Source: a virus (Duplodnaviria > Caudoviricetes). Taken from it: a stretch of DNA of 64,000 bases. The translations under genes and the position numbers were made by a program. Positions 29,152 through 63,140 of this stretch are shown in pieces. Below the pieces are notes generated by a model. It saw nothing but the letters and a program-made list of their open reading frames with translations, ran no database searches and was not told the DNA's origin. The stretch is from positions 227,103 through 291,102 of IMG/VR virus record IMGVR_UViG_3300018430_000021; one strand, written 5' to 3'. Within the stretch, counting starts at the first letter, position 1; each line of letters opens with the position of its first letter.

Positions 29152-29188
29152 AAATAAAAAATTAAGGCTCCCATTGTGTGGGAACCTT
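29152..29188 (-). terminator. attenuator terminator of the Leu/Ser/Trp tRNA operon
   Basis: AAGGTTCCCA-CACAA-TGGGAGCCTT followed by AATTTTTTATTT, directly before tRNA-Trp. Confidence 0.8.
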
Positions 29189-29217
29189 ATAAACTTTCAT
29201 ACGATTAAAAAATCGAA

Positions 29218-29304
29218 CTACTTAGTTCCCACTAGACTACGACGCAATAACCAGCTGAGGAGCAGGCTACTGAGTAGGAGGAGTGTCAAACTAAGTGTCT
29301 TCAT
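29218..29304 (-). CDS. leader peptide MKTLSLTLLLLSSLLLSWLLRRSLVGTK
   Basis: RBS AAAGG; 12 Leu using all six codons, 5 Ser all AGY, 1 Trp; too short for the ORF track. Confidence 0.85.
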   Translation of the reverse strand: MKTLSLTLLLLSSLLLSWLLRRSLVGTK

Positions 29305-44419: not shown

Positions 44420-45187
44420 TTATTCATATTTACCAATTAAATTTTTATTAGAACTAAAATGTCTTCTTTTTGTATTAGATTTAAAAATTGGTATATATTT
44501 TTTAAATCGCACATAAATTGCATTTTTTAAAACATGTAATTCATTTGCAAAATCTTCAAGTTTATAGTAATTTCCTGAATGATATTTGTCCCATAATTCC
44601 CTAGATAATTTCAAAGATTCATTATATCTTGTAATTGTAAATGTTGTTTTATGTTTTTTATGTTTTTTATGTTTTTTTACACCATATACAATTTTGTTTG
44701 ATTCACCATGAAAAAGGTTTCGACCTTCAATCCAGAAATCTTCTAATGGTTTTTCTTTAAACTTCTTAGATTCTCCAGTATTACGATTTGTATACCATTT
44801 AGTTCCAAACTGTGAATTTTTATTACCTTGTTGATTCTTACTTGTTATTTTACTTATCGTTTTTGCAAACTCCATGCGTAATGCTTCATATGCACGAGAA
44901 TTTATATAACGATGTTTTTCTTTAGTCGTTTGCCCTTGCATTCGCCAAAGTGCACATAACATTTTATTTCTTTCAATAGTTCCTTTATCATACATTTTAA
45001 CAAGTAACCAATGACAGATAAAATGTTCACGTGCAGTTAATCTAACAAGATTTTCATTATCGTTTGTACCTCCTAATGATTTTGGTTGAATATGATGTTT
45101 TTCATAATAACCTACATATCTGTTCCCATTTTCTGTTTCCCTTTTTGCTTTTTCAATTATCTTATAATATATAGCTTTATAATTCAT
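44420..45187 (-). CDS. free-standing HNH homing endonuclease inside the tRNA operon
   Basis: YEKHHIQPKSLGG..D..NLVRLTAREHFICHWLL; AT-rich. Confidence 0.85.
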   Translation of the reverse strand: MNYKAIYYKIIEKAKRETENGNRYVGYYEKHHIQPKSLGGTNDNENLVRLTAREHFICHWLLVKMYDKGTIERNKMLCALWRMQGQTTKEKHRYINSRAYEALRMEFAKTISKITSKNQQGNKNSQFGTKWYTNRNTGESKKFKEKPLEDFWIEGRNLFHGESNKIVYGVKKHKKHKKHKTTFTITRYNESLKLSRELWDKYHSGNYYKLEDFANELHVLKNAIYVRFKKYIPIFKSNTKRRHFSSNKNLIGKYE

Positions 45188-45316: not shown

Positions 45317-45352
45317 AAAATAAAAAAGATTCCTGTGAGCGACACAGGAATC
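45317..45352 (-). terminator. attenuator terminator of the Asp/Arg/Lys/Gly/His tRNA operon
   Basis: GATTCCTGTG-TCGCT-CACAGGAATC followed by TTTTTTATTTT. Confidence 0.85.
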
Positions 45353-45378
45353 AATCTAAAACTTTTTACAGTTAAAAA

Positions 45379-45480
45379 CTAGATGACCCTGTGCTTGTGT
45401 CGATCCTTATCATGCTTACCGAAACCTCGTCCGTCGCGGCGAGTCTTGCAATCATGAGTGTCAACTACAAACTTAGTCAT
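45379..45480 (-). CDS. leader peptide MTKFVVDTHDCKTRRDGRGFGKHDKDRHKHRVI
   Basis: RBS AAAGGA; 5 Asp, 4 His, 5 Lys (all AAG), 5 Arg (4 CGN), 3 Gly. Confidence 0.85.
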   Translation of the reverse strand: MTKFVVDTHDCKTRRDGRGFGKHDKDRHKHRVI

Positions 45481-45530: not shown

Positions 45531-45657
45531 AATAAACAGCGAGCAGTAACTTGTGGAAATAAGAGTTGGACTCGAACCAACGATCTTTGCATTGCTGCAA
45601 CGCTCTAACCAACTGAGCTATCTCATTGATTATAGGAACCGCTTGTGCTGTTCTATT
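45531..45657 (-). ncRNA. anticodon-less tRNA-like RNA closed by the GCA-N6-GUUCCUAU module
   Basis: D- and T-arms intact; anticodon arm is TTGCA-GCAA-TGCAA; outer stem carries the module. Confidence 0.7.
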
Positions 45658-49904: not shown

Positions 49905-49909
49905 ATTAG

Positions 49910-49983
49910 TGGATCCAGTGGTATTCGAAACCACAACCTCCCGCTTGCAGGGCGGGTGCTCTGCCAAATTGAGCTATGAACCC
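49910..49983 (-). tRNA. tRNA-Ala(TGC), C33
   Basis: Loop CCTGCAA, G3:U70. Confidence 0.9.
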
Positions 49984-49990
49984 ATGTTAG

Positions 49991-50063
49991 TAGCGGCGTC
50001 GGGAATCGAACCCGAATGCCAGGATTGAAGGTCCCGTGAACTAAGCCGTTATTCTACGTCGCC
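49991..50063 (-). tRNA. tRNA-Glu(TTC), C33
   Basis: Loop CCTTCAA. Confidence 0.85.
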
Positions 50064-50073
50064 ATAATTTTAG

Positions 50074-50146
50074 TAGTCCTATACAGATTCGAACTGTAGT
50101 AACTTGGCTGAGAACCAAGTGGCCTTGACCGCTAGCCGATAGAACC
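50074..50146 (-). tRNA. tRNA-Glu(CTC)
   Basis: Loop TTCTCAG. Confidence 0.9.
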
Positions 50147-50153
50147 ATATTAG

Positions 50154-50228
50154 TGCCACCGACAGGGGTCGAACCTGTGACGCGAAGATCTTCGGTCTTC
50201 CGCTCTACCAAAACTGAGCTACAGTGGC
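50154..50228 (-). tRNA. tRNA-Phe(GAA), C33
   Basis: Loop CCGAAGA. Confidence 0.85.
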
Positions 50229-50240
50229 ATATATTTTTTA

Positions 50241-50315
50241 TGGACCGTAGGAGGCTCGAACTCCTGACCCCCAGAATGCAAATCTGGTGCTCTACCAAAA
50301 CTGAGCTAACAGCCC
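50241..50315 (-). tRNA. tRNA-Ala(TGC)
   Basis: Loop TTTGCAT, G3:U70. Confidence 0.9.
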
Positions 50316-50320
50316 GAAAA

Positions 50321-50448
50321 TAAAACTGACCTTACTCATCTCAACGCGTACTATTGACTTTCGGTAAGCGCATACGGGATTCGAACCCGTGACCAGCGGC
50401 CTTCACACCGCCTGTTCTACCGCCGAACAAAATGCGTTATCAGTTTTA
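50321..50448 (-). ncRNA. tRNA-like core (about 50366-50438, irregular anticodon loop) inside a longer closing stem
   Basis: D- and T-arms present; loop region TGTGAAGG; flanked by TAAAACTGA/TCAGTTTTA. Confidence 0.55.
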
Positions 50449-50449
50449 G

Positions 50450-50523
50450 TGGACACATATGGGATTCGAACCCATGACGTTTTCCCTGCCAGGGAAACAT
50501 TCTACCAACTGAATTAATGGCCC
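50450..50523 (-). tRNA. tRNA-Ala(GGC)
   Basis: Loop CTGGCAG; acceptor with a 1-nt bulge. Confidence 0.85.
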
Positions 50524-50534
50524 ATGATTTTTAG

Positions 50535-50608
50535 TAGCGCTGTCGGGACTCGAACCCGAATTTCCGACTTGAAAGGCCGGTGAACTGAACCAGTTATTCG
50601 ACAGCGCC
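50535..50608 (-). tRNA. tRNA-Glu(TTC)
   Basis: Loop CTTTCAA. Confidence 0.9.
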
Positions 50609-50617
50609 GAAATTTAG

Positions 50618-50691
50618 TGGACACATATGGGATTCGAACCCATGACGTTCTGCGTGCAAAGCAGACATTCTACCAACTGAATTAATGGCCC
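50618..50691 (-). tRNA. tRNA-Ala(TGC)
   Basis: Loop TTTGCAC; body identical to 50450..50523 apart from the anticodon arm. Confidence 0.85.
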
Positions 50692-50700
50692 AAATGTTAG

Positions 50701-50773
50701 TACTCCGTCCCGGATTCGAACCGGGGTTATCCGATAGAAAGTCGGATGGCTTAAACCGCTGGCCGAACGGAGC
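50701..50773 (-). tRNA. tRNA-Glu(TTC)
   Basis: Loop CTTTCTA. Confidence 0.9.
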
Positions 50774-50784
50774 ATATTTTGTAG

Positions 50785-50857
50785 TGCCAAGTTCCGGAGT
50801 CGAACCGGATTTCTGGGATTTTCAGTCCCGTCCATTCCCACGATTGGATGCCATGGC
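50785..50857 (-). tRNA. tRNA-Phe(GAA), divergent
   Basis: Loop CTGAAAA; imperfect acceptor and D arms. Confidence 0.65.
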
Positions 50858-50858
50858 A

Positions 50859-50893
50859 TAAAAGAAAAGTTCCTGTGCTTGTGCACAGGAACC
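50859..50893 (-). terminator. attenuator terminator of the Ala/Glu/Phe tRNA operon
   Basis: GTTCCTGTGC-ACAA-GCACAGGAAC followed by TTTTCTTTT. Confidence 0.85.
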
Positions 50894-50917
50894 GTTTTTA
50901 AAACTCTAATCGGTTAA

Positions 50918-51031
50918 CTACCTGATCCTATGCACTGTATTTGAATCAAATGCTTCAAACGCTGCAGCTGCAAATTCAGCTGCGGCACGTTCTGCTGCAA
51001 AAAATTCATGTTCAAATACGTTCATAGTCAT
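50918..51031 (-). CDS. leader peptide MTMNVFEHEFFAAERAAAEFAAAAFEAFDSNTVHRIR
   Basis: RBS AAAGGT; 10 Ala, 6 Phe and 5 Glu out of 37 residues. Confidence 0.88.
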   Translation of the reverse strand: MTMNVFEHEFFAAERAAAEFAAAAFEAFDSNTVHRIR

Positions 51032-51215
51032 TTTGTTACCTTTTGTTATTATATATAAAAATTTTTTTCCTGTTTTTGCAAAAGTTTGATTCGGCCAATG
51101 GACTCCATCCAAAGTTTTACGTCAGCTCTGCACCGAATCATCTGATGCATCAGTTATGTGTTAAATATAGTAAAAAGTTGTTGGTTTGTAAACCCCTTTT
51201 TAAAATATTTTTTCG

Positions 51216-51327
51216 TGGGGAAGGCAGGATTCGAACCTACGACACACGCCTTGGAATGGAAATAGGAACGTTATATGCATTTCTACGAAACGTAAATACC
51301 GTTGCTCTACCACTGAGCTACTTCCCC
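51216..51327 (-). ncRNA. tRNA scaffold with the module inserted in the anticodon arm
   Basis: Canonical acceptor, D- and T-arms; about 40 extra nt containing GCATATAACGTTCCTAT. Confidence 0.7.
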
Positions 51328-51332
51328 GAGTG

Positions 51333-51644
51333 GTTAACGCGAAATGTATGAACTCATCTAAAAAATAATGCTTTTGATAGGAACATTCTTTGCGTTAACG
51401 ATGTTAAATATAGTAAAAAGTTGTTGGTTTGTCAACCCCTTTTTTAAAATATTTTTAGCCGGCGAGACTGGATTCGAACCAATAACCCAAAGTACCCTTT
51501 AGATAGGAAGCATTGGTGCTGAAAGCGAATACTAAATCTTAAACTTTTGCTCTACCGATTGAGCTACTCGCCGAGATGTTAACGCGAAATGTATAAACTG
51601 ATCGAAAATAATGTTTTTTTGATAGGAACATTCTTTGCGTTAAC
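51333..51644 (-). repeat. two copies (51333-51399, 51578-51644) of a ~67-nt hairpin RNA carrying the module, each after its own promoter
   Basis: GTTAACGC...GCGTTAAC ends; GCAAAGAATGTTCCTAT in both. Confidence 0.8.
51459..51573 (-). ncRNA. tRNA-Pro-like scaffold with the module inserted in the anticodon loop
   Basis: CGGCGAG/CTCGCCG acceptor; AAAGT/ACTTT stem around an insert with GCACCAATGCTTCCTAT. Confidence 0.7.
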
Positions 51645-51684: not shown

Positions 51685-53022
51685 TTATTGTAACTTTTTT
51701 TCCTCCTTCAAGTTTTTTCTGGAACGTTCTTTTTGTTCTTCAAGTAACTTGTTGAAACCGTCAAGGTCAACGGTAAGGTTATGCTGTTCACAAAGCATTT
51801 GTGTCAAGTCGACAGGAAAACCATAAGTATCATAAAGCTTGAAAGAATCAAAACCAGACAATACATTTCCATCCATCTTGGAAACAATATTGTTAAACTG
51901 CTTGATTCCGCTATCAAGGTTCTTCAAGAATCTTGATTCTTCATTCTTGATAACTTCAGTTACGAATTCTTGTCTTTCCTTAATTTCCGGATATACGTCA
52001 CCCATTACGTCGATAACAACCGGAACGAGCTTATACATAAACGGTTCATTGATATTTAACATCTTGCAGAACAAAGAACCTCTGCGAAGAAGCCTTCTCA
52101 ATACATATCCGCTTCCCTTATTAGAAGGCTGAAGTCCGTCAGTAATAGAAAATACAAGAGAACGAATATGGTCACTGATAACCCTGTGAGGCGTGCCGGA
52201 TTCATCATTCTTATATTCTACACCGCTAAGTTCAACAATCTTATCAATAAGTGGTTTAAACAAGTCGGTTTCATAATTACCGTTTGTATTCTGAAGAATA
52301 GAACAAATACGTTCAAATCCCATACCGGTGTCGATATTCTTCGTAGTCAACGGAATAAGCGTTCCATCAGAAAGTCTTTCTTTCTCCATGAATACAATAT
52401 TCCAGATTTCTACGTAACGGTCATTTTCACCGTTTACACCAAGGATAGGATCCTTGAATGTTTCTTCTTGAGTATTCAAATCGCCACGGTCATAATGAAT
52501 TTCAGAACAGGGACCGCATGGACCAGTATCACCCATTTCCCAGAAGTTATCTTTTTCTCCGAATCTCATAATACGGTCATCAGGTAGATTGGAAACTTCC
52601 TTCCAGATTTTCCAACTTTCATCATCGGTCTTATAAACAGAAACAAACAATCTTTCCTTAGGTAACTTCCATACTTTCGTTAAAAGCTCCCAAGACCAAG
52701 AAATAGATTCCTTTTTATAATAGTCATTGAAAGACCAGTTTCCAAGCATTTCAAAGAACGTATGATGATAGTTATCACGACCGACAACATCGAGGTCATT
52801 ATGCTTTCCAGATACACGTAAGCATTTCTGGCTGTTACATACACGTTTTAATCCTTGCGGGTTTTGACCAAAAAAGATTGGTTTAAACTGGTTCATTCCG
52901 GAATTCGTGAATAACAACGTCGGATCGTTATTGGGAATAACGGAAGAAGACTTGATAAACTGATGATTTTTTGACATAAAGAAATCAATAAAACTTTTTC
53001 TAATTTCGCTCGAGGTAAGCAT
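51685..53022 (-). CDS. alaS: alanyl-tRNA synthetase, aminoacylation and tRNA-recognition domains only; contains no Ala
   Basis: DPTLLFTNSGMNQFK, HHTFFEMLGNWSF, GPCGPCSEI, IDTGMGFER, GYVLRRLLRR, FKLYDTYGFP; ends before the editing domain. Confidence 0.95.
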   Translation of the reverse strand: MLTSSEIRKSFIDFFMSKNHQFIKSSSVIPNNDPTLLFTNSGMNQFKPIFFGQNPQGLKRVCNSQKCLRVSGKHNDLDVVGRDNYHHTFFEMLGNWSFNDYYKKESISWSWELLTKVWKLPKERLFVSVYKTDDESWKIWKEVSNLPDDRIMRFGEKDNFWEMGDTGPCGPCSEIHYDRGDLNTQEETFKDPILGVNGENDRYVEIWNIVFMEKERLSDGTLIPLTTKNIDTGMGFERICSILQNTNGNYETDLFKPLIDKIVELSGVEYKNDESGTPHRVISDHIRSLVFSITDGLQPSNKGSGYVLRRLLRRGSLFCKMLNINEPFMYKLVPVVIDVMGDVYPEIKERQEFVTEVIKNEESRFLKNLDSGIKQFNNIVSKMDGNVLSGFDSFKLYDTYGFPVDLTQMLCEQHNLTVDLDGFNKLLEEQKERSRKNLKEEKKLQ

Positions 53023-53035
53023 TTTTATTCTCCTA

Positions 53036-53070
53036 TAAAAATTAAAAGGTTCCTGTTGTGCACAGGAACC
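53036..53070 (-). terminator. terminator in the alaS leader
   Basis: GGTTCCTGT-GCACA-ACAGGAACC followed by TTTTAATTTTT, just before the alaS RBS. Confidence 0.8.
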
Positions 53071-53105
53071 AAAGTTTAGTTAATGAATATACCCATACAC
53101 ATATA

Positions 53106-53165
53106 TTATGTCATAATATATGCGGCTGCTGCGAAAATGCGAGTATTTAATATATTCATCGTCAT
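53106..53165 (-). CDS. alaS leader peptide MTMNILNTRIFAAAAYIMT
   Basis: GCA GCA GCC GCA run; MTMN start shared with the Ala/Glu/Phe leader. Confidence 0.8.
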   Translation of the reverse strand: MTMNILNTRIFAAAAYIMT

Positions 53166-59413: not shown

Positions 59414-59526
59414 TCGGAGAGGCACGGCTCGAACGTGCGACCTGCGGGTTATAAGCCATTAATAGGAACAACCTGTGCCATGAGCGGGTAGTAAAGTACG
59501 CTGCTCTACCACTGAGCTACTCTCCA
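59414..59526 (-). ncRNA. tRNA scaffold with the module inserted in the anticodon arm
   Basis: Canonical acceptor, D and T arms; insert with GCACAGGTTGTTCCTAT. Confidence 0.7.
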
Positions 59527-59973: not shown

Positions 59974-60131
59974 TCAAAACTAAAAATATGGTAAGTGGCC
60001 GACACTGTTCAAGACACGCATTCAATTCCTCGTGCACTAGGCAGAACTCTGGAATTTACTTAATGTCAGCCTTAAGGCACACTTACCGTACCTACAGTCT
60101 TTTCTTTTAAGTAGAAAGAAAATATATGTAA

Positions 60132-60250
60132 AAATAAACTCAGTTGCTTTAAAGTAGAAGAACATGAAATAACTCGGCTGCTTTGAAGTAGAAGAGCTTT
60201 GAAATAACTCAGTTCTTTGAAGTAGAAGAACCTGAAATAACTCAGTTTTT
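60132..60250. repeat. about 3.5 tandem copies of a 33-35 nt unit (AAATAACTCAGTTGCTTTGAAGTAGAAGAACNTG)
   Basis: Head-to-tail repeats without spacers in a non-coding region. Confidence 0.85.
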
Positions 60251-60613
60251 TATGGAAACTTTGAAAAACCGTTTTCAAACACACTGCCGGAATCCCGATT
60301 CTCCACCGGCCATGACGTCTATCAACTGCACATTCTATCGGTCGACTTCTTATAGGGTACAAACTCCGTCATCTAGCATTTTATTGATCGTCTAGCTATA
60401 TCAAACTCACAAAATACTCTTCATGCCACGCTGCTACATGAATTCAGCGCTCACTAAACGTAGTATACATCGATTTCTCTATACAAGAGGTTTAGCTCAA
60501 CGCGTTGTCAGGCCAGGGCACTTACGCATTCCCGAGTGTTATCCCAGCTCTTCAGTCTTAATGATGGTGCGTCCGTCAAAAAGCACACGCGCTTAAGTAT
60601 ATTATATATAAAA

Positions 60614-60886
60614 AATTTCGTATGCTTACAGGCGTCCTAATTGCAAGGACCGATTAAGGAGCACAACAGGTGGTTAACCCAGAGTTTCTCTCCGCTCACT
60701 CTTATTTCAAGTGGCCTCACGTGGCATATTTTAGTAGAGCCAATACTACACCTCTGCGACCATCATTCTGGTATTCATCTAGTTCGCAGAGACAGATTCC
60801 TCATCCCAGAGTTTTCCCCATCTGGGTTAGCCCGTTAGCATGAAATCAAGAATGATGCAACACGGGTTCTACTCACATACGAAATT
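60614..60886 (-). ncRNA. unassigned ~270-nt structured RNA
   Basis: 11-bp terminal stem AATTTCGTATG/CATACGAAATT, nested stems, upstream promoter at about 60954-60985. Confidence 0.5.
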
Positions 60887-62857: not shown

Positions 62858-62933
62858 TCGGCGTACCTGGATTCGAACCAGGGAAACCTCTTGATCCCAA
62901 ATCAAGCGCTCTACCAGACTGAGCTACACACCG
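62858..62933 (-). tRNA. tRNA-Pro(TGG)
   Basis: Loop TTTGGGA, C1-G72, A73. Confidence 0.9.
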
Positions 62934-62985
62934 CAAGTTTTTAAGGTGGTTCCACCACCAGCTGACTACAGCTATAACGTTTTAG

Positions 62986-63058
62986 CTGTCCTTCCTGGAC
63001 TCAAACCAGGGACCAAGTGATTAACAGTCACCGACTCTACCTACTGAGCTAAAGGACA
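62986..63058 (-). tRNA. tRNA-Asn(GTT)
   Basis: Loop CTGTTAA, U1-A72, G73. Confidence 0.9.
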
Positions 63059-63140
63059 ATGTTTTAATCATTCATTTACGTCGTATAATATAGTAAATTA
63101 TGCTCCGTTTGTAAACCCCTTTAATTAAAAAAATTTTTAA

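Follow-up and report, generated by a model that had tools for sequence, protein, structure and literature searches.

A giant T4-like phage carries, directly ahead of an array of tRNA genes for alanine, glutamate and phenylalanine, a cassette made up of a short leader open reading frame (ORF) rich in codons for the same three amino acids and a terminator hairpin whose 5′ arm is complementary to the end of that leader. This Ala/Glu/Phe cassette is a real feature that is not explained by chance. It is likely to be a ribosome-mediated (leader-peptide) transcription attenuator controlling a phage tRNA operon; no expression, ribosome-profiling or 3′-end data are available for it. The strongest evidence for attenuation, itself an inference from sequence alone, is that leader codons and array tRNAs co-vary across phages. 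The attenuator reading had been put forward in an initial annotation of the DNA and is supported here, since every sequence-level prediction was met and the comparative data add independent support.

The phage and its relatives

The window analyzed, a stretch of 64,000 nucleotides, makes up the final 64 kb of a 291-kb IMG/VR virus record that is rated 70% complete. The virus has a T4-type major capsid protein, and the G+C content is 38.7%. The minus strand carries all the genes of the window together with its 33–36 tRNA genes. All features described below lie on that strand, and positions are those of the window.

Relatives were recovered only by a capsid search of IMG/VR. Two of them, G001 and G002, are complete genomes of 416 and 424 kb with terminal repeats and have capsid proteins ∼94% identical to that of this phage; in a further group of relatives the capsid is ∼70% identical. 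Against cultured phages the best capsid identity was only 35%. Use of the alanyl-tRNA synthetase (AlaRS, described below) as the query retrieved no near relatives from IMG/VR and only distant cellular-type matches from phage records, and the tRNA region searched against phage records matched tRNAs only. The T4-type RNA ligase and CCA-adding enzyme families had no match in the record, an absence made uninformative by its 70% completeness.

The leader ORF and its upstream signals

The leader ORF (50918–51031) comprises 37 codons and a TAG stop codon. Its translation contains 10 Ala, 6 Phe and 5 Glu residues, which bears out the initial count of 21 Ala, Phe or Glu codons out of 37. Among the 36 non-start codons these amino acids account for a fraction of 0.58, against 0.17 expected from the proteome of the genome (binomial P 3.4e-8). 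All 21 codons fall between codons 6 and 28 (50948–51016), a stretch that codon positions and the nascent folds described below define as the sensing zone, and every one of them can be read by anticodons of the downstream array. The six Phe codons are without exception TTT, as against a genome-wide TTT share of only 43% of Phe codons. About 40% of the leader codons are non-cognate to the array.

A ribosome-binding site, AAAGG, is located 7 nt 5′ of the ATG (51039–51043). An AAAGG/AAGGA element occupies the equivalent position in the box-bearing cassettes C1, C2 and C3 and in the relatives, with C4 having an alignment gap there. Farther upstream is a sigma-70-like promoter, TTTACA-17-TATATT (51164–51192), and promoters of the same type precede the sister cassettes (29392–29362, 45703–45675 and 53200–53172). 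Just upstream of the leader, a motif count identified an AT-rich box ending in TATATAATA (51047–51066), which has four matches in the window against 0.4 expected and a fifth copy elsewhere in the genome, before a Tyr/Cys/Met/Ser cassette. The box may be a second promoter or a −10 element.

Comparison of orthologues points to translation of the leader. Indels between the two orthologue types measure 3, 3 and 6 nt within the ORF and 1 and 4 nt after the stop codon. Among seven orthologues the Ala and Phe codons drift synonymously and the spacer codons change amino acid. We read the indels in multiples of three and the synonymous drift as signs that the leader is translated; this remains an inference, with no ribosome-profiling data behind it.

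The same observations bear on the possibility that tRNA is sensed without translation, by a switch made of RNA alone that is either T-box-like or bound by a protein. In favor of such a switch, tRNAs and a synthetase are the usual clients of T-boxes. Against it, the Rfam T-box model gave no match either at the gathering threshold or at E-values up to 10, and none of the Rfam leader families matched the leader region, which gave only chance-level matches to unrelated families. Neither a specifier nor a T-box motif was found, and the leader is a ∼110-nt reading frame with frame-preserving indels and synonymous drift. We consider an RNA-only switch very unlikely.

Arginine codons recur in the leaders, with 2, 5 and 3 copies in those at 29218–29304, 45379–45480 and 50918–51031, respectively, and a GAA-CGT pair is kept between both orthologue types of the Ala/Glu/Phe leader. 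Despite this recurrence no Arg tRNA was called in this genome fragment.

Terminator, antiterminator and tRNA array

A spacer of 25 nt separates the leader from a terminator hairpin (50868–50893) with an 11-bp stem, a 4-nt loop and a folding energy of −16.6 kcal/mol. The hairpin is followed by a U-tract with the tail TTTCTTTTAT (50858–50867), and the first tRNA gene begins at the next base. The array (49909–50857) was defined with ARAGORN and consists of 11 tRNA genes in the order Phe, Glu, Ala, Glu, Ala, odd, Ala, Phe, Glu, Glu, Ala. Ten of these were called directly (50773–49909), and the leading tRNA-Phe(GAA) (50857–50784) was called only at a lower threshold. With this gene included the totals are four Ala, four Glu, two Phe and one odd tRNA, and the initial assignment of four Ala, four Glu and two Phe tRNAs therefore held.

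The U-tract abuts the mature 5′ end of the first tRNA, and thus there is no room for a promoter between terminator and array. It follows that the hairpin is a gate rather than the end of an unrelated gene, and that expression of the array needs read-through. The same zero spacing is found in sister cassette 1, where the first gene is tRNA-Trp (29151), and in sister cassette 2, where it is tRNA-Asp (45316).

An alternative is that the ORF encodes a functional micro-protein, as a mini-gene ending at the hairpin, with the tRNAs being transcribed independently. The good ribosome-binding site and the conserved frame would agree with this. However, independent transcription is hard to accommodate without promoter space between the U-tract and the first tRNA. 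The peptide is, moreover, poorly conserved among orthologues except in composition, that composition tracks tRNA content, and a search of leader peptides against NCBIfam gave no family match. The micro-protein explanation is accordingly rated very unlikely.

The putative antiterminator arm, GTGCATAGGA (50926–50935), lies in codons 33–36 of the leader and would be covered by a ribosome with its A site on the stop codon. It pairs with TCCTGTGCAC in the terminator 5′ arm (50890–50881) over 10 bp, one of them G-U, as the initial annotation had claimed. The energy of the arm duplex is −12.5 kcal/mol, or −18.3 kcal/mol with loop bases included, and pairing as good is found in only ∼0.45% of random 27-nt windows of the genome. 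The terminator had also been described as related to those of other leaders through a shared core, and this held as well. The core, TTCCTGTG, occurs in seven copies in the window against 1.4 expected and builds the stems of the terminators at 45352–45328, 50893–50868 and 53070–53048.

Sister cassettes

Three sister cassettes are present in the window. Cassette 1 (29163–29304) consists of a 28-codon Leu/Ser/Trp leader (29304–29218), in which these three amino acids take up 18 of the 27 non-start codons, and a terminator (29189–29163), and precedes an array of Trp, five to six Leu and Ser(GCU) tRNAs (29151–28432). In cassette 2 (45328–45480) a 33-codon Asp/Lys/Gly/His leader (45480–45379) and a terminator (45352–45328) precede an array of two Asp, two Lys, three Gly and one His tRNA (45316–43400). 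Cassette 4 (53048–53165) has a 19-codon leader (53165–53106), in which four Ala codons are consecutive, and a terminator (53070–53048), and stands before the AlaRS gene. A fifth cassette, 11.8 kb outside the window, lies ahead of Tyr, Cys, Met and Ser(GGA/UGA/CGA) tRNAs.

The layout of TTTACA-17-TATATT promoter, AT-rich box, ribosome-binding site, short ORF and terminator recurs. The four cassettes of the window align over the AT-rich box, an ATGAC start, a spacer motif and the terminator core, and we therefore regard them as paralogues with rewritten coding parts. This supports the initial suggestion that an attenuator cassette was duplicated and retuned; evidently, copies of the cassette have been rewritten to suit at least six different tRNA sets.

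In the fifth cassette (G000:C1:215145–215350, minus strand), codon 9 is an in-frame TAA, and the G002 orthologue encodes Ser at this position. Beyond the TAA, codons for Cys, Ser, Tyr and Met remain frequent in the frame. The TAA may have arisen by nonsense mutation or sequencing error, or it may be a stop that is read through. A suppressor tRNA is one conceivable explanation; no anticodon could be assigned to the insertion-bearing tRNA-like genes described below.

Codon-tRNA match and co-variation across phages

Every leader was scored against every array and all possible assignments were permuted. The true assignment of leaders to arrays was the single best one in this genome (1 of 24), in G001 (1 of 120) and in G002 (1 of 120). 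The match extends to the level of individual codons. Specifically, the Ser codons are all AGY in the leader before tRNA-Ser(GCU) and all TCN in the leader before Ser(GGA/UGA/CGA), and Gln codons are CAG in leaders whose arrays have tRNA-Gln(CUG).

Leaders also follow the gain and loss of single tRNA genes. In G001, tRNA-Gln(CUG) and tRNA-Cys have been added to the Trp/Leu array, and two CAG and two Cys codons have been added to the leader before it. From the Tyr array of G001 tRNA-Cys has been lost, and Cys codons are absent from the leader, as against three in each of the corresponding leaders of this genome and G002, where tRNA-Cys is kept. The Tyr array of G002 ends with tRNA-Gln(CUG), and three CAG codons are present in the leader. 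In both G001 and G002, Thr/Asn/Pro(/Val) leaders precede Asn, Pro and Thr arrays. A relative with 71% capsid identity has a single mixed array of 17 tRNAs for 14 amino acids; the 37-codon leader before it (L108:17331–17444, minus strand) contains all 14 of the array amino acids (Trp, Cys and His among them), has no Asn, Thr, Val or Tyr, and is adjoined by a terminator that abuts the first tRNA. Leader codons thus mirror, and co-vary with, the tRNAs of their arrays in at least four phage lineages. Three unrelated phages that are also rich in tRNA genes (Sinorhizobium phage Phosso, Vibrio phage Pontus and an uncultured 635-kb phage) were scanned in the same way as controls, and no codon-matched ORFs stood ahead of their tRNA arrays.

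The correspondence has exceptions. The G001 orthologue of the Ala/Glu/Phe leader contains Ile and Asn codons with no matching tRNA in its array, and in this genome the Asn, Pro, Thr, Met and Val array (62858–63115; from 63058) has a promoter directly ahead and no leader ORF. A leader farther upstream of this last array cannot be excluded, as both window and contig end at 64000. Co-variation of Val was set aside as weak: the leader of the G001 orthologue goes from two to four Val codons and its array has two additional Val tRNAs, and an orthologue without Val tRNAs has three Val codons.

Switch geometry and folding

The arrangement of the pairing segments is shared by most of the cassettes. In 12 of 14 cassettes from three genomes, a leader segment located 14 to 2 nt ahead of the stop codon shows complementarity with the terminator 5′ arm of the same cassette; in the Tyr-type cassettes the complementary segment straddles the stop codon. 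The terminator sequences differ between cassettes, each arm matching its own, and the true pairing of leader tails with terminators was the best of 5040 permutations. Between the Trp/Leu cassettes of this genome and G001 one position has changed jointly in the antiterminator arm, the 5′ arm and the 3′ arm of the terminator, with both structures being kept. In a variant of the AlaRS cassette, a T-A pair of the terminator is replaced by C-G, a compensatory change.

An equilibrium fold of the whole leader and terminator was dropped as a model of the switch because the terminator always wins: with the full-length RNA of this cassette the terminator was preferred at every ribosome position, and no switch was obtained. 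Nascent-RNA folds were used instead, in which the RNA extended up to the terminator loop and 28 nt around each A-site codon were blocked. In these folds the antiterminator arm holds the terminator 5′ arm for all ribosome positions through codon 28, and the 5′ arm is freed only with the ribosome on the last codons or the stop codon. Since the terminator wins at equilibrium, the switch must be kinetic, as in the classical (trp) attenuators; that the two structures do compete in this manner is inferred. With an untranslated leader the nascent model gives read-through, in which case termination would require transcription and translation to be tightly coupled in the unknown host. A pairing of the 1:2 type, between the arm and leader codons 2–8, occurs in the full-length minimum-energy fold and is absent from the nascent fold.

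The stability of the terminator at equilibrium could instead be taken to mean that a leaky constitutive terminator sets a fixed low level of array transcription and that the short ORF has no regulatory effect. There is, indeed, no experimental evidence of switching. However, this explanation does not account for the co-variation of leaders and arrays in at least four phage lineages, for the complementarity of each leader's last codons to its own terminator, or for the frame-keeping indels of the ORF, and we judge its probability to be very low.

An alanine-free alanyl-tRNA synthetase

The gene behind cassette 4 (51685–53022) encodes the catalytic domain of an AlaRS, without an editing domain, that contains no alanine in 445 residues. 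The mean Ala content of the proteome is 5.4% (P 5.5e-11), and this is one of the two most extreme amino acid depletions of the genome. Alanine is likewise missing from a variant of 94% identity that comes from another sample, as against 3.6–10% Ala in 119 other homologues. In the leader of the variant the four-Ala run is kept through synonymous changes, and five other codons have changed.

The leaders of the Ala/Glu/Phe and AlaRS cassettes share their first four residues, and their terminators are of the same type. The AlaRS gene is missing from G001, G002 and G006, and for this reason it is probable that the AlaRS cassette was copied from the Ala/Glu/Phe cassette. The nearest cellular homologues of the enzyme (59–61% identity) are from Fibrobacter and Chitinispirillia, which may be a hint of the host. 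A synthetase that can be built without Ala-tRNA raises the possibility that the phage meets severe loss of Ala-tRNA. An Ala-free AlaRS under an Ala leader would be a rare case of a protein composition shaped by the very shortage that the protein should relieve.

Other features of the tRNA region

Three tRNA-like genes (51216–51327, 51459–51573 and 59414–59526) match the Rfam tRNA model from end to end. All three carry an insertion, which in the first two was measured as 45–51 nt and located in the anticodon arm; these two also have a promoter each. ARAGORN intron calls for the insertion-bearing genes were inconsistent, and no anticodon could be assigned. The motif GTTCCTAT is present in nine copies in the window against 2.2 expected, seven of them on the minus strand in the tRNA region (45632, 51262, 51377, 51622, 59462, 59775 and 62034). 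It is found within two of the tRNA insertions and immediately 5′ of tRNA-like genes, and is possibly a processing or protein-binding site; the third insertion has the shorter TTCCTAT.

Two genes with a 6-nt anticodon loop were noted. One, the odd tRNA inside the Ala/Glu/Phe array (50366–50438), is conserved in at least three related contigs; the other, a tRNA-like gene between the promoter and the leader of cassette 2 (45554–45627), is conserved in G001. Between the two tRNA-Asp genes of array 2 is a 255-amino acid ORF with a weak match to HNH endonucleases (44420–45187), probably a mobile endonuclease inserted in the operon. Upstream of tRNA-Met a non-coding region of ∼640 nt (59980–60620) contains a copy of the AT-rich box seen before the leaders (60600–60619) and a 34-nt tandem repeat of 3.4 copies (60132–60246); no Rfam match and no leader ORF were found in this region.

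Proposed mechanism and biological role

The mechanism proposed for the Ala/Glu/Phe cassette is as follows. Transcription would start from the upstream promoter or the AT-rich box, and the 37-codon leader would be translated while RNA polymerase proceeds. With Ala-, Glu- and Phe-tRNAs plentiful, the ribosome would reach the stop codon and cover the last leader codons, the terminator would form, and transcription would stop at the U-tract just before the first tRNA gene. If any charged Ala, Glu or Phe tRNA is scarce, the ribosome would stall within codons 6–28 and leave GTGCATAGGA free to pair with the terminator 5′ arm before the 3′ arm is made; the polymerase would then read on and eleven tRNAs would be produced, presumably being cut from the leader by RNase P. 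The net effect would be a negative feedback that ties the supply of a tRNA set to the decoding speed of its own codons. Regulated read-through and its physiological trigger, whether tRNA loss or starvation, are inferred.

There is a limit to the feedback view. A stalled ribosome cannot distinguish a shortage of tRNA from amino acid starvation, and extra tRNA is no help against the latter. The same attenuator might therefore report the amino acid or charging state of the host, with the phage timing or scaling its tRNA synthesis to host physiology rather than responding to tRNA abundance. Several points favor this alternative: the stalled ribosome senses only aminoacyl-tRNA, the classical trp, his and ilv leaders respond to starvation, and one sister cassette controls an aminoacyl-tRNA synthetase, which affects charging and not tRNA number. 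On the other hand, more tRNA does not relieve amino acid starvation, and the isoacceptor-level match (Ser AGY versus TCN, Gln CAG) and the tracking of single tRNA gains and losses by the leaders fit the sensing of the tRNAs produced. We consider the host-state explanation unlikely and prefer tRNA-abundance feedback.

It has long been asked why large phages carry tRNA genes by the dozen. Matching of codon usage, replacement of degraded host tRNA and escape from tRNA-cleaving defenses have all been proposed as answers. In the feedback reading the sensor codons are the codons read by the controlled tRNAs and would show what the phage monitors, namely the speed of decoding there. A bolder version, which we consider less likely than not, is that the cassettes form a counter-measure circuit in which each leader monitors a given set of host tRNAs for loss as it happens. 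Such loss might be caused by host anticodon nucleases, by other tRNA-targeting immunity or by the phage's own host shut-off, and the stall would switch on replacement tRNAs on demand. The Ala-free AlaRS behind an Ala leader would then be an emergency enzyme that could be built with no Ala-tRNA left. If this were true, phage tRNA islands would be an inducible repair or escape system and not a supplement to codon usage.

Relation to known attenuators

The cassette has the hallmarks of an attenuator: a leader ORF with a ribosome-binding site and start codon, codon enrichment, a terminator with no later promoter, and an antiterminator that can be masked by the ribosome. It departs from the pattern in what is regulated, which is 11 tRNA genes instead of genes for biosynthesis, transport or a synthetase; only sister cassette 4, before AlaRS, conforms in this respect. 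Phe-rich leaders before the E. coli tRNA-Phe genes pheV and pheU were considered as a precedent and not borne out, the ∼100-nt upstream regions having no annotated leader. In the full-text literature searched, leader peptides ahead of phage tRNA genes were not described.

T-box riboswitches resemble the phage system in that tRNA status controls genes of the decoding machinery through a choice between terminator and antiterminator. However, uncharged tRNA is the direct ligand of T-boxes, which work without translation, and the phage leader has no T-box features. In trpL, as is predicted for the phage, a ribosome at the stop codon masks a segment that pairs with the terminator 5′ arm, and the competition is kinetic and co-transcriptional. 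The two differ in that an untranslated trpL terminates through its 1:2 hairpin whereas the phage fold model gives read-through, and in that trpL senses one amino acid and the phage leader three.

Among enterobacterial multivalent attenuators, the ilvGMEDA leader senses Ile, Leu and Val, and the thr leader Thr and Ile. Like the phage cassette, these have a short multi-amino acid leader and an intrinsic terminator, the position of the ribosome chooses the antiterminator, and a stall at any sensed codon leads to read-through. The phage system differs in being phage-borne, in regulating tRNA genes rather than biosynthetic enzymes, and in having no sequence similarity that could be found (no Rfam match). 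Its layout, furthermore, has three segments, with the antiterminator arm contained in the final codons of the leader, and no 1:2 anti-antiterminator has been clearly established. The nearest analogue of cassette 4 is pheM-pheST, the E. coli phenylalanyl-tRNA synthetase operon, in which a leader-peptide attenuator likewise acts on a gene of the decoding machinery. The synthetase is a cellular one there; here, an alanine-free AlaRS without an editing domain is phage-borne, and paralogous cassettes act on tRNA arrays.

By analogy, then, the putative mechanism of the phage cassettes is closest to that of the multivalent ilv and thr leaders and, for the AlaRS cassette, to that of pheM-pheST. The cassettes would offer synthetic biology compact, modular and retunable sensors of tRNA availability. 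Leader-peptide attenuation itself is already known; what is distinctive here is the proposed target of trp-operon-style control, tRNA genes in a virus, which would extend such attenuation from amino acid operons and pheST to tRNA genes and to viruses.
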